Assembly: GCA_035221665.1 (NCBI GenBank)
Contig: CM069155.1
Span: 40,858,001 to 40,922,000 of the forward strand
Direction of reading: 5' to 3'
DNA length: 64,000 nucleotides
Source of the DNA: Okamejei kenojei
Taxonomy: Eukaryota
In this document: piece after piece, positions 3,881-54,150 of the stretch
Position numbering within the stretch: position 1 is the first letter of the stretch
Layout of the letters: each line of letters opens with the position of its first letter
The notes under the pieces: model-generated
Told to the model about the DNA's origin: nothing
What the model saw: only the letters and a program-made list of their open reading frames with translations
Database searches by the model: none
Made by a program: the position numbers and the translations under genes

Positions 3881-4735
3881 GGGTTCAATTTATAAGGTCA
3901 GAAGTGGGAATGTTTGGTAACAATTGCATAATGCCCAATTCCATTCATAAATGAAGCTTGCTGCAGCAAGACCTTCCCACATTCTGGCGTGGGCTGAATG
4001 TGGCAAGTAATAACGACCCCAAAAGCGTCGCATGATGACCTTCTCAAAAAGAATCGAACCATCAACCCTGGATATTCAATAGCATCATCAAGTCTCCCAC
4101 AATCAGCATTTTGGGAATACCGATCAGAAGTACAACTTATGGATTATTTAAATAGACAATGACATGAAATGAAGTCCAATATTATAAAGACTTTTCATGT
4201 ACATCATGCCTTGCAAAAATCAATCTTAAACCCTCAGTTTTATGTTTCTTGTACACAATCCCTCATCTAATTTCAGTCCACTTAGAATGAATGTACATAA
4301 AGACTAAATATATATGGTATTAATTAGGTCAGGCAGTATCTAAAGAAAGAGAAAGAGTTAACATTTCAGGTTGAAGATCCTTCATTAGAACTGGGAAGGA
4401 GAGAAAACAACTTGGAGGTAGGAAAGGATAACATGGCTTTAGTTTAGAAAAATGACAAAATAAAGGCAGTTAAGAGTGTGAGCACGCATACAAAGGATTG
4501 TACAATGCAGGACATGCCATCAGGTCAGGTTGTGCCGACGGTAGAAAAACAAAGCCAATATTACCAATAGATGACATAGTCCATTCAGAAAAAAACTAAT
4601 TACTGAAGTTGAAGAACTCAGCTATGTCCGATCTCCCTAGAGCAGAGGTGGTTAAGATTGTACATGTTGACTCTAAATTTTCTAGATCTTTATCAATTAA
4701 TATTCAGTATACTAAGGTGTACTCAGTATACTAAG

Positions 4736-4870
4736 ATTAGTCTGAAGAAGGGTCTTGACCTGAAACTTCACCCATTCCTTCTCTCCAGAAATGCTGCTTG
4801 TCCTGCTGAGTTACTCCAGCATTTTGTGTCTACCTTTGATTTAAACCAGTATCTGCAGTTTTTTCCTACA
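4736..4870 (+). mobile_element. Short Penelope-terminus element with hammerhead-like core
   Basis: gtCTGAAGAagggtcttgacctGAAActtc...ctgagttactccagcattttgtgtc; flanked by cagtatactaag (4724-4735) / cagtacactaag (4871-4882). Confidence 0.8.
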
Positions 4871-4907
4871 CAGTACACTAAGGCAACAACCTTCACATTT
4901 ACAATTT

Positions 4908-51100: not shown

Positions 51101-53870
51101 TTTTTTTTGCCATTAGCAGTAATCACTTCTCCAACTGTCTAATCCACAAATTATTTTCCTCCCTAGTGCAGAAAGCACATGCTGACGAAACAGTCCTCAT
51201 CAAAGTGATAACACACCTGTAGTGTCCAGCTTTCAAGCTCATTTTCCTTGGTAGAGCACATCTCTCAAACATCAAAAGATTTCACTTGTGTGAACGCACA
51301 TGTATTCCATTTTAAGTTAATTCAACGCAGCTGAGAAGTTGTTTGGCATTACTCAGACATGCTGATTGTTTCTTCCTTCCCACAGCACCTCCACACCACA
51401 GAAAGATATTTAAAATAAATGCCAAACATGGTAGCAAAGCAGAGTGTTCTGGGCATGAGCATTTGGTGACTCAGATGACAAGAACTGCCCTTCAAACAAA
51501 CGCTCGGTTTCAGCCTTGTGTTGGCCCAGTAAGAGGAATCAAATGCTTAAAGTTGTTTAAATTGCCTTGATTGTACCAGGAGGCCAAACAGTACAATATG
51601 AATGATGTCTGGTTTTCATTTACAGTACTGCAAATCTGAAACTAATTACTGTTGGGTCATGTTTGTTGAATAAAAGCACTTCAGTATTATGCTCATACCA
51701 AACTAAGGATATTAACAGCCAGCAATAAAAAATGTTTTACAATGCACATCTGTAAGCAATGTGAACTGAAGTCTGCACCCGACCATTTAAAGCACTGCTG
51801 CTCGTAGTGGAAACACTTTGACCAATTCTTTTAAGATGTAACTAAGTCAGATGAAATGCAACTCACACCCATATTCACCTGGCAACAGTGTCGTTTATGG
51901 TCACAAACATTCACACAATCACACAAATCTGTACCAGTGTTTCATTTAAATTCAATGAATATACAAGAAATTTAAAGAAAAAGCCATAACTAGTCAATTT
52001 TAATATTTAACTCTGAAAGCTTCCAGTGATGTTGTGGTGCATATCTTCATCTGCATTCAACAATAGAATACACTTTTATTACAGGTGCTACTAAGGCATT
52101 TTAATCTGTTTAAAAATATTTTTTCAGCTAACTCTGTATTAAACACCATTCCTTTTACCATAGTAGTGCACCAAGCATTAAGAAACCCTCCTCCTCTGAT
52201 CTTTAAATCCCTTCCTGCTGAACCTGCTGCTTCTCCTGAACACTTCAGTTCTCTGACCTCTTCTTTACAGCCCATCTCATTGGCTGCCATGCCTTGTCCA
52301 CCGCTCCAAAATTCTCTCTCAAATTCTCTCCCCCTTCACTTCCTCAAATGTTTTTCTTAAAATCCACTCGTGGTTGCAAACTGATGTCATCTGTCATAAC
52401 CTCTTCATTTCAGTTTGAAATGTTCACGTTTTCTTCAAATACATCAAAACTTTTAAAGGTACTAAAGAAGTCTACATTGTTATTATCGAGTCACACGAAT
52501 ATGAAATTGATTGCAATTTTTGTTCATTGTGCATAGGTATCTTCTAACAGATTGGTAGTACAATTGAGAACTAGAATGCATCGCATGAACAATGGCGAGC
52601 TGAAACCCATGTTCTTTCATCAACACACAGCATGTATTATAAACATCTAATGTGTCTCATATGGGTAGAATAGATTATTGTAACTCTTTGCCACCCAAAT
52701 ATGATGGTAGTACATTGTTGCATTACTTTACTAGTAACACTGGTATCCAGAATACGAGTCCGAATTTATTTTTCAGTTAAAAATGATCTGATATTTCAGT
52801 AATGATGTCCATGCGGCTGCACATCTGTTCACCAATTCCTTCAGAGAACACAATGCGCCATTTTAACACATAAGTGACCTCATACCGCTATGTGGTTGAT
52901 TCTTAAATACTCCGTTAAATAGTTTACCAAACTTCTCAGTTGTCATTATAACCTTGACATTAAAATAGAAAAAAGATAAAATCAGATGAAGCATGGCATT
53001 CATGCAGATATCAAATTCAGACATGGAAAAGTAAAACCGAGTCCTACAATCCTGTAAAATTGTCCTCACAAACATTTACGGCAATGTCCCACAGACATGT
53101 CAAAAACAGCCTTACATCATCCTCAAAGAATCACACCATAAGGACAACATGTACAATGGTACATGATTATCACATGTAGAAGTAGTGCTTTGTCCTGGAA
53201 TACATTCAAGTTTATATGTTTGACATTGTTTGGACATTGCTCTCAGGGTAAATGCCAAAGCCCTTGAGCATTTTACTACATTGTAAAACTCATCGAGTCA
53301 TCATTTATTCGACATTTGAATTGCAGAAGAAATTGGTTACCACATACTACTCCACTGCTTATTTTATGAATGCAATTCAATAACAATGCTTTATGGGCTT
53401 AACTTTAAGTCAATTTACATCTGTAAGAAATGTGGGGCCCAACTTTTATTACCAAAACGTGTTGTTGGAAATTTGGATTTTTACATCCAGTTTAGAATAA
53501 ATTAGTCACATCTTTCAAAAGTGCAATTAGTAATTAGTTTCACAATGACGACCAAATTTCCACAAGAAATTCAGCAAAATATAAGCACAAGACATTCATT
53601 TTATAGGCTAGGCATGAAATGTTGTAATTTACTAGGAAGTGATACAATGGGATCAGTACTAAATTAGGGGTTTTAAAATTGGCCATAGCAACACAACCAC
53701 ACAGAGTTCAGTTTTATTTTACAGATATTAGTAAATGGGAAAATGTAATAGATTCATAATGTTCAGATACTTTTACTTAAATAAAAGACCAAATATTAAT
53801 AAAAACAAATTTTGATAATTTTGGATACGAAATTGGCTTGAAAGGCAGAAACAGAGGGTGGTGGTAGAGG

Positions 53871-54150
53871 GTAGACAGAAAATGCTGGAGAAACTCAGCG
53901 GGTGAGGCAGCATCTATTGAGGCAACGTTTCGGGTCGAGACCCTTCTTCAGACTGATGTCGGTGTGGGGTGGGGGGGAGAAGAAAGGAAGAGGTGGAGAC
54001 AGCAGGCTTTGTGAGAGAGCTGGGAAGGGGAGGGGAAGGTAGGAAAAAGCAAGGGCTATCTAAAATTAGAGAAGTCAATGTTCATACCGCTGGGGTGGAA
54101 AGTACCGAAGCGAAATGTGAGGCGCTGGGTCTCACTCTGGCAATGGAGGA
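53871..54150 (-). mobile_element. Penelope-like 3' fragment with hammerhead core, nested in a CR1 RT remnant (~53825-54335)
   Basis: caacgtttcgggtcgagacccttcttcagac (53923-53953); CR1 text runs ggcagaaacagagggtggtggtagagg | ctttcagactgg..agtggtgcaccatagggatcggtg across the insert. Confidence 0.82.

Follow-up and report, generated by a model that had tools for sequence, protein, structure and literature searches.

Short repeats that carry a hammerhead-like motif but no open reading frame recur across the 64,000-nucleotide stretch of Okamejei kenojei DNA that we analysed (the window), and they raise the question of what they are copies of and why their 5' ends gather a few bases before the motif's CTGAAGA. 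Searching the window with a 28-nt motif and up to six substitutions returned eight copies, on the + strand at 4742, 6626, 10128, 26988, 32475 and 41295 and on the - strand at 19495 and 53951, while BLAST with natural copies gave 16 matches, a count in which tail-only stubs are included and each arm of a two-armed insert is entered separately. The features are as follows, with signed positions given relative to CTGAAGA and TSD denoting a flanking target-site duplication.

4705..4883, +, solo copy with tail B; CTGAAGA at 4742, insert about 4736-4870, right repeat 4871-4883
4705-4717, doubled at 4724, +, left repeat of the 4736 copy
4905..4960, -, tail-only stub, about +82..+133; no TSD found
6229..6719, +, broken GIY-YIG fragment, 3' UTR, hammerhead motif (6626) and tail A; an ordinary 5'-truncated copy, no TSD found
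10111..10214, +, decayed solo with tail A and an internal deletion; insert 10126-10199, start -2; 15-nt repeats at 10111 and 10200
19348..19529, -, young-subfamily solo with tail B and an A run; start -2 plus 18 extra nt, CTGAAGA at 19495; flanked by a 14-nt TSD without mismatch (19348 and 19516)
26945..27095, +, solo with tail A after a short inverted tail-B stub; start -3/-2 (26986); flanked by 15-nt repeats (26945, 27081)
32424..32617, +, two-armed insert; the inverted arm spans 32440-32473 (+19..+52) and meets, at -2, a direct arm that ends at tail B; flanked by 16-nt repeats (32424, 32602)
35231..35280, -, tail-only stub, about +87..+131; no TSD found
37018..37203, +, two-armed insert without CTGAAGA; its inverted arm spans 37030-37077 (tail A) and its direct arm runs from +24 to tail B; flanked by 11-nt repeats (37018, 37193)
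37470..38040, -, older copy with GIY-YIG remnant, 3' UTR, decayed hammerhead motif (about 37559) and tail A
41283..41398, +, solo with tail A; insert 41293-41388, start -2/-3, preceded by G; flanked by 10-nt repeats (41283, 41389)
53867..54150, -, end of the GIY-YIG region, pyrimidine-rich 3' UTR, hammerhead motif (53951) and tail A

The short repeats are separate insertions of a Penelope-like element end

The original prediction named seven copies without an open reading frame as bearing flanking duplications of their own, and all seven do show direct repeats, of 10-16 nt with at most one mismatch (scores 8-14); among 200 random control positions a score of 8 was reached by six and a score of 11 by one. 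By the same scoring the three copies with GIY-YIG fragments and six stubs have no flanking repeats above chance. Moreover, the 19362 copy is missing at the orthologous site in four of four runs, from three organisms in three studies, with one contig per run skipping 168 nt and 14 letters fitting both sides. The duplications and this empty site bear out the prediction that the copies are independent insertions. The 26960 insert also counts as two-armed because of its short inverted tail stub, and the copy at 37029, whose direct arm begins at +24, lacks the 5' half of the hammerhead motif.

What was inserted is the hammerhead-to-tail end of an autonomous Penelope-like retrotransposon, as the predicted Penelope origin had it: the short copies are its terminal ~100 or 135 nt, and the unit is identical letter for letter. 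Its young subfamily gives 28,054 exact matches and includes full-length copies with matched ends and a unit of ~3,935-3,992 nt (~4 kb), one of them with a natural open frame of 1,190 codons (L154). A further copy (L102) holds a 727-aa frame with RYIDD and YIGET motifs, that is RT followed by a C-terminal GIY-YIG in one ORF, for which Pfam gives RVT_1 at E=2e-6 and GIY-YIG at E=0.002, both below the cut-offs. The linker before its nuclease, CNRKKCNTC, fits the CX2-5CxxC that the available part of PMC8557442 gives as the Neptune clade motif, and by this motif only the element would be of Neptune type. Its pseudo-LTRs (pLTRs) are direct (L153-L159) or inverted (the inverted arm of L102 is 99.5% identical), two-unit tandems occur (L415, L416), and an ATG lies at about +163 of the unit. 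Solo variants match the pLTR variants of the autonomous subfamilies along their whole length. Among 62 copies in 464 kb of unselected DNA, 37 were solo, 12 inverted, 11 long and 2 unclear, and by rough extrapolation from the 133 matches in those 464 kb the repeat may total several hundred thousand copies. The repeat itself is thus ordinary, a very abundant and known kind of jumping gene. At the 3' side, 153 of 171 young copies end at two tail points (85 at +90..96 and 68 at +124..133), and these two end classes show that the optional 30-40 nt tail of EN+ Penelope-like elements is present here.

The hammerhead motif decays like neutral DNA

We read the motif as a putative self-cleaving hammerhead from its CUGANGA/GAAA core and from its agreement with the minimal type-I pattern given in PMC4209133: it has the core CUGANGA...GAAA, a stem II that folds in the minimum-free-energy (MFE) structure, an NUH site and a palindromic 15.2-16.2. 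An Rfam scan gave no match at the gathering score, and folding showed no excess stability over shuffles (z 0.03 for the 41-nt motif; range across motif and unit 0.03 to -1.1). The core decays like neutral DNA, with its base G12 mutated in 19% of 149 copies and a CpG neighbour in 16%. In stem II one recurrent variant keeps pairing via U-G with a UUCG loop, and the remaining changes are mostly CpG decay. Indels at the cleavage site were found in 15/63 copies, compared with 5/75 and 3/69 at control positions (p=0.09 once six identical deletions are merged into one), which may be a weak hint of self-cleavage; 3' ends are not enriched there (2/63 candidate copies compared with 2/75 and 1-2/69 in controls).

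The 5' ends pile up just before CTGAAGA

We tallied 5' ends by eye in the first 100 of the 28,054 matches, which lie in the initial 8.5 Mb of a single contig, with both arms and a few duplicated loci counted, and found 40 at -7..0, 17 at +1..+12, five further 3', six at -8..-60 and 32 longer; a script run on the first 30 copies agrees with the tally by eye (15/30). Random 5' truncation is typical of Penelope-like elements, and long copies here do end at scattered points (-330 to -982), but 8 of 90 positions hold 40 of the 68 ends, against an expected 6 (p=7e-25), so that the predicted non-random boundary holds and uniform truncation is refuted for the pile-up class. Recombination between two pLTRs would retain upstream pLTR sequence, and the solos are without any; we therefore consider it extremely unlikely that either process left the solos. 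In the window, the predicted start at the GT before CTGAAGA is found at 10126, 41293, 26986, 19497 and 32473, whereas the copy at 4740 starts at about -3/-6.

The pile-up lies ~30 nt upstream of the cleavage site (+28) and 5' of all helices, with at most 5 of the 100 ends near the cleavage site. A G precedes the unit in a modest excess of plain solos (32/66 and 19/48, by eye), weaker against dinucleotide expectations. In the young subfamily TATAT stands 25-29 nt upstream of A(-3), and every subfamily examined keeps YCAGT; set beside the TATA and Inr consensus sequences, both are imperfect matches. Contigs from three presumed RNA runs and one probable DNA run cover along the element, although assembled contigs do not show starts.

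Long copies and loops point to a probable RNA 5' end

Long copies cross the same motif twice, and at the second crossing only 3 of 35 stop, one of which proved to be a loop, against 57 of 95 at the first (p=8e-8). Additional evidence comes from looped copies, which come back to one 5' position: in 13 of 20 pairs the two ends agree within 2 nt (shuffled mean 4.2; 0 of 20,000 shuffles), including odd points at -43, -34, -31 and +2, and the partner's upstream reach is exceeded in only 1/37. This agrees with the template switching that had been predicted at the boundary. Of 18 junctions near the pile-up, 10 have a G before the restart (p=0.005) and 6 have A-rich linkers, with one more such junction in L312/L412 (A3G, +2/+2, TSD). 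Among the 13 concordant loops, L292, L298 and L307 have one and the same junction, and a small circle or a genomic tandem would account for these three as well as a jump would. Jumps between different RNAs appear rare, as only one clear subfamily chimera (L164) was seen among ~102 copies with young-type upstream sequence. Recurrent identical junctions were also considered as a new mini-family and rejected, the copies being carried inside other repeats.

What sets the boundary

The second-crossing test and the loop concordance favour the RNA's own 5' end, an alternative that the original prediction did not consider and that fits best, over a boundary set by RNA structure at which the RT stalls or switches template on the folded hammerhead. 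For such a structural stop one could cite that the boundary adjoins the motif, that many inverted junctions lie at -4..+20 and that stem II is present in the MFE fold. However, 32 of the 35 long copies pass this motif without a stop, the ends fall upstream of every helix instead of at stem II's 3' foot (+19), the 41-nt motif is no more stable than its shuffles, and the loops repeat molecule-specific ends such as -43 and -31; this part of the original prediction is largely refuted, and we regard it as very unlikely. Its other proposal, a SINE- or retrozyme-like RNA cut out by its own hammerhead and mobilised in trans, fares no better. Retrozymes derived from Penelope-like elements are known in the literature, copies without an ORF do outnumber long ones (37 against 11 of the 62), a few mini-tandems have a repeated junction (L300, L307, L292, L298), and one loop (L285) starts at the cleavage site. 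Yet the 5' ends as a whole lie ~30 nt upstream of that site, the 3' ends reach it about as rarely as in controls, and G12 has mutated no less than its CpG neighbour. Moreover, the solos are the end of an autonomous element, with no lineage of their own of the kind that a SINE would have, and they stand singly or head-to-head with no unit-length tandem arrays seen, all of which leaves this proposal with little chance of being right.

The boundary could also be a 3' splice site (pyrimidine tract, CAG/T), with solos arising from spliced RNAs or splicing intermediates. All subfamilies have pyrimidine-rich sequence upstream and the CAG, the Drosophila virilis intron ends at helix I, a donor-like AAG/GTATGC lies at about +161, and the spread over -4..-1 resembles exon-end bias. 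Against this, in 30 of the 32 solos with a resolved TSD, at most 8 extra nt separate it from the unit, so no upstream exon is left in them; the young 3' UTR has no GTRAG donor, no GT..AG joint occurs among the 15 joints listed of 687, and restarts at +2 and -43 go unexplained. Splicing, too, thus strikes us as improbable.

A proposed mechanism

The solos are probably best explained by internal priming at the tail, run-off at a likely capped RNA 5' end and an occasional jump within the same RNA. The RT would begin synthesis internally, at either of two tail sites in the RNA, as in vitro with anole Poseidon in the literature, and run off a few bases before CTGAAGA, where a Pol II start cluster would lie in CCAGTCTG at about -4, -3 and +2. 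The G could come from the cap or from non-templated addition. On reaching the RNA 5' end the RT could jump to the 3' end of that RNA, which would often be prematurely polyadenylated, and a two-armed copy would consist of two cDNAs of this kind, primed from both strands of the target. A template that continues across the 5' point would be needed for long and full-length copies: a circle cut by the hammerhead and then ligated, a read-through of several units, or a jump guided by homology. Full-length copies from the same capped RNA, which would thus often start at -3, were rejected, with only 3 of 35 doing so.

In LTR elements, minus-strand strong-stop DNA starts internally near the RNA 5' end, runs off it and is transferred to the RNA 3' end. 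It is conceivable, although we hold this only tentatively, that Penelope-like elements replicate in a similar retrovirus-like two-step manner, with a short, target-primed strong-stop cDNA that reaches from the tail to the capped RNA start and then a transfer to the RNA 3' end, by a jump or a hammerhead circle, to copy the ORF; solos would be failed transfers. If so, the solos, in their hundreds of thousands, are a genome-wide record of where transcription starts, loops with oligo(A)+G linkers are transfers caught mid-act, and pLTRs and partial tandems are explained. The genome has a young and near-identical subfamily with tens of thousands of insertions whose ends separate two template classes, and the mechanism makes predictions at the level of single bases: the transcription start site, stopping set by template and not by structure, and jumps to the same RNA.

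Comparison with known systems

Penelope-like elements are the sister group of telomerase, and the results bear on the origin of their pseudo-LTRs and partial tandems and on the role of their hammerhead. That role is called unclear in the available part of PMC8557442, and later steps of insertion are left unvalidated in that of PMC11167929. The EN+ elements of Neptune/Nematis type, as far as PMC8557442 is available, share with the skate element a single RT-GIY-YIG ORF, a CX4CxxC before the nuclease, pLTRs, inverted 5' arms, an optional 30-40 nt tail and heavy 5' truncation; here, however, about half of the young insertions share one sharp 5' point, a peak that this part of the paper does not describe. 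In Anolis carolinensis Poseidon (Frangieh et al. 2024, PMC11167929, in its available part) two internal RT start sites likewise match the genomic tail ends, both strands are primed, a hammerhead lies near the ORF start and insertion proceeds without need for cleavage, but the ORF starts within stem II and not, as here, at an ATG about +163. The same part of that paper proposes a multi-copy mRNA and does not address 5' ends and jumps, although its Fig. S2, a coverage of genomic ends, may bear on the 5' peak. In D. virilis an intron runs up to the hammerhead, and transcription starts 46 nt upstream of that intron. The published arrangement is therefore not one in which the start sits at the hammerhead edge, and a search of the literature outside most subscription journals and supplements found no published mapping of such a peak.

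The minimal type I hammerheads of metazoan Penelope-like elements (Cervera and de la Pena 2014, PMC4209133) share CUGANGA, the extra A, a short stem II, GAAAC-GUC without stem III and a 2-bp stem I. The available part of that study finds mostly single dispersed motifs, ascribes them to truncated elements and proposes a circular template; it maps no insertion ends, whereas the start of the solos in this genome lies not at the cleavage site but upstream of it. Metazoan non-LTR retrozymes (PMC7229834; bioRxiv 10.64898/2026.07.22.740005; both in part) are similarly non-coding and pLTR-derived, with a type I hammerhead and long TSDs, but are described as tandem cleavage-to-cleavage units in place of the single or head-to-head run-off pieces seen here, which only the rare mini-tandems L300 and L307 resemble. 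Transfer onto the RNA 3' end may be likened to the template jumping of R2 (PMC11371274, in its available part), as an analogy and not as membership. Unlike the strong-stop DNA of LTR elements, the cDNA would here be primed by nicked target DNA, without a tRNA primer or integrase, and failed transfers would for that reason end up inserted in the genome.

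The unit in the window and its surroundings

Numbering the unit from the C of CTGAAGA as 0, with the predicted hammerhead cut between +27 and +28, a motif search of the window recovered eight hammerhead copies with at most 6 substitutions, and BLAST with natural copies as queries gave 16 matches there, arms and stubs counted. One of these, at 19362, is a solo (a short copy lacking an ORF) of the near-identical young subfamily, and the rest belong to older subfamilies. As originally predicted, seven ORF-less copies carry their own flanking duplications, all seven having repeats of 10-16 nt with scores of 8-14, where random positions reached a score of 8 at 6/200 and 11 at 1/200. 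Moreover, in contigs from four runs and three organisms 19347 adjoins 19516, 168 nt being absent and 14 letters fitting either side; this unoccupied site, sought for the 19362 copy only, indicates a true insertion with a 14-nt target-site duplication (TSD). One exact 30-mer has 14,101 matches in the 2.76-Gb genome, and unselected DNA gave 133 matches per 464 kb. The repeat types point to a cartilaginous fish as the probable host.

Older, diverged relatives of the unit lie at 17740-17920 (one with a CTGATGA core, in head-to-head arrangement), 1640-1712 and 23018-23100, which suggests that elements of this kind have also spread in earlier waves. Other repeats in the window are:

2416-3225, 23852-24773 and 30225-30901, minus strand: LINE 3' fragments, which we take to be CR1-like, with ORFs at 2496-2948 and 24066-24773
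43467-46680: inverted repeats of 96 nt (90%) flanking a GC-richer segment of 3 kb, perhaps a DNA transposon into which a LINE has inserted
44157-44990: reverse transcriptase (RT) fragment of 277 aa inside that segment, presumably Rex/Babar-like

Elsewhere, copies have travelled inside other repeats. At C1:18.99-19.55 Mb (L222-L224) another repeat, 1.8 kb or longer, contains a solo that bears an inverted tail stub and has an 11-nt TSD; this repeat was amplified after the insertion (10 of the first 100 GT-boundary matches). A two-armed young insert (L202, L204, L206) was amplified along with the GC-rich, MITE-looking repeat of ~0.6 kb that holds it (4 of the first 100 matches).

The parent element

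Upstream of the motif we find a pyrimidine-rich 3' UTR and then GIY-YIG and RT coding sequence. Full-length young copies have a motif-to-motif unit of 3,935-3,992 nt; of eight measured, seven have ends that are identical at 89-90 of 90 nt, and an ungapped count gave 62 for the eighth. One full-length copy has a natural open frame 1,190 codons long, its ATG near +163, and Pfam matches to RVT_1 and GIY-YIG both fall below the cut-off. Between the N-terminal domain and the RT region (ORF ~+800..+1,550 in copies L120 and L115) lies a long, internally repetitive, proline-rich linker whose length differs among copies. The young element L115 (C17:26.24 Mb) is inserted directly after the last exon of a gene that, judged by a motif, is presumably IL-17-like.

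At least five subfamilies exist in which tail type is tightly tied to upstream type. The one clear chimera, L164, joins a young ORF and 3' UTR seamlessly to the hammerhead and tail of another subfamily, with the crossover upstream of +12.

The 5' ends pile up just before the hammerhead

With an anchor at +30..+59, for which the hammerhead need not be present, we obtained 28,054 exact matches. Among the first 100, judged by eye, 40 begin at -7..0, 17 at +1..+12, five further 3' at +13 or beyond, six at -8..-60 and 32 beyond -61; the sample covers 8.5 Mb of one contig, counts two-armed inserts by both arms and includes a few duplicated loci. End density is ~6% per base inside the peak and 0.3% on either side, and uniform truncation predicts 6 of 68 ends in the peak where 40 were seen (p=7e-25), in agreement with the recurrent boundary first proposed. 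A scripted recount of the first 30 anchor copies placed 15 in the peak. Upstream the peak breaks off sharply, downstream it has a shoulder, and it lies 5' of every helix, 30 nt from the predicted cleavage site. TSDs flank 32 of 47 non-inverted peak copies (mostly chosen via anchors with a GT or AGT boundary), and since no more than 8 extra bases stand beside the unit in 30 of these 32, there is no space for an upstream exon.

What sets the boundary

The original prediction offered a structure-determined RT stop, which would act each time the motif is copied. Copies containing the ORF start have crossed it twice, and in 35 of them (anchors +151, +515 and ~+790; extending to ~+780 or more and reaching +30, short loops and copies whose truncation lies before +30 not being counted) only 3 stop at -7..+12 on the second crossing, compared with 57/95 on the first (p=8e-8); one of the three is a loop (L312/L412), and including one older copy the count is 4/36. 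The structural stop is thus not borne out, and stopping is the property of a template class. The same count led us to reject a common RNA for full-length copies and solos.

Nor do ends gather at the predicted cleavage site: of the 63 copies whose +28 is a non-purine, two stop there, like controls. Small indels are found there in 15/63 copies versus 5/75 and 3/69 at two control positions, but one recurring microhomology deletion accounts for six of them, and once these are merged the excess is not significant (p=0.09); at best this hints that long copies may pass a cut-and-joined site. The motif matches the minimal type I hammerhead, described as needing a dimer (PMC4209133). Of 149 genomic copies with at most 5 substitutions, 19% have lost the core G at +20 and 16% its CpG partner; the expected excess conservation of the core is thus absent and no selection acts on it after insertion.

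Splicing was also considered. The unit could act as an exon of ~165 nt; no splice joint of it stood among the 15 of 687 joints listed. In copy L153 the start codon lies inside a donor-like AAG|GTATGC (~+155..+168), and an acceptor-like CAG|T precedes the hammerhead.

An RNA start fits the context. YCAGT at -5..-1 is kept in all subfamilies, preceded in the young one by TATAT 25-29 nt before A(-3) and in others by a GC-box-like CCGCCC, which we take to resemble an initiator with upstream elements. A rotifer pseudo-LTR is described with an Inr-like TCACT and a TATA box, and in D. virilis the internal promoter of Penelope starts 46 nt ahead of an intron whose end is at the hammerhead. In plain solos G stands before the boundary in 32/66 ahead of GT and 19/48 ahead of AGT, a modest enrichment (host-flanked copies only, scored visually among the first 100 of 3,311 and 2,737 matches).

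Looped copies

After 37 of 109 aligned segments with an end at +150..+1040, a further unit from the motif region follows immediately; this is no rate, many segment ends being alignment breaks in the repetitive linker. Because cDNA grows from the tail backwards, these loops would be read from the tail to a first stop b', a jump onto a 3' end within the start of the ORF, and copying back to b. Where the second pass reaches +30, b lies within 2 nt of b' in 13 of 20 pairs (shuffles gave a mean of 4.2 and reached 13 in 0/20,000), including at the unusual points -43, -34, -31 and +2, and b is >3 nt upstream of b' in only 1/37 loops. A cap gives an extra G. Among the 18 junctions with b' at -6..+5, G directly precedes b' in 10 (p=0.005 vs 0.25) and six have A-rich linkers, e.g. 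eight A then G; a further case, L412, has an A3G linker, +2 on both passes and a TSD. The simplest reading of these junctions is a linear RNA template, probably capped at b' and ending 3' in oligo(A), that was copied over its full length at least twice. In three of the 13 concordant loops one junction, with microhomology, recurs; small circles or genomic mini-tandems could have produced these three. In L285 the restart falls at the predicted cleavage site. In the mini-tandems L300, L307, L292 and L298 one junction is repeated (e.g. +231 to ~-275, +188 to -34), and these are candidates for nascent retrozymes or small-circle products.

Proposed mechanism

In 171 young copies the 3' end lies at +90..+96 in 85 and +124..+133 in 68, and nine run on into the ORF; these two end points, tails A and B, are the known optional tail of Penelope-like elements (PLEs). 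Most likely the protein nicks the target and begins synthesis at tail A or B, close to the RNA 5' end, copying 100-135 nt of cDNA up to a putative capped start at ~-4..+2. Solos would result when the cDNA is joined and up to a dozen bases are lost, priming from both strands would give head-to-head pairs, and an occasional jump to the RNA's own 3' end would give loops. Long copies would require an RNA continuous across the start, whether a circle, multi-unit read-through or homology-guided transfer, and the existing tandems of two full units favour none of these.

Comparison with known systems

Taken together, the repeat family is real and ordinary, and the signal of a putative RNA start is, at the level of sequence, well supported. 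The suggested SINE- or retrozyme-like identity did not survive, as the elements fail both tests. In the main texts of open papers we found no mapping of this 5' peak or of same-template jumps in PLEs. The in vitro work on an anole PLE describes RT initiation at two internal sites that match the tail ends, extension of both target strands and a requirement for RNA downstream of the RT start sites (Frangieh et al., PMC11167929). Solo minimal hammerheads from truncated PLEs, their tails and inverted arms are all already published, and the elements belong to a known kind. In the parent PLE a CX4CxxC motif precedes the nuclease, a likeness by motif to the Neptune and Nematis elements as described in PMC8557442.
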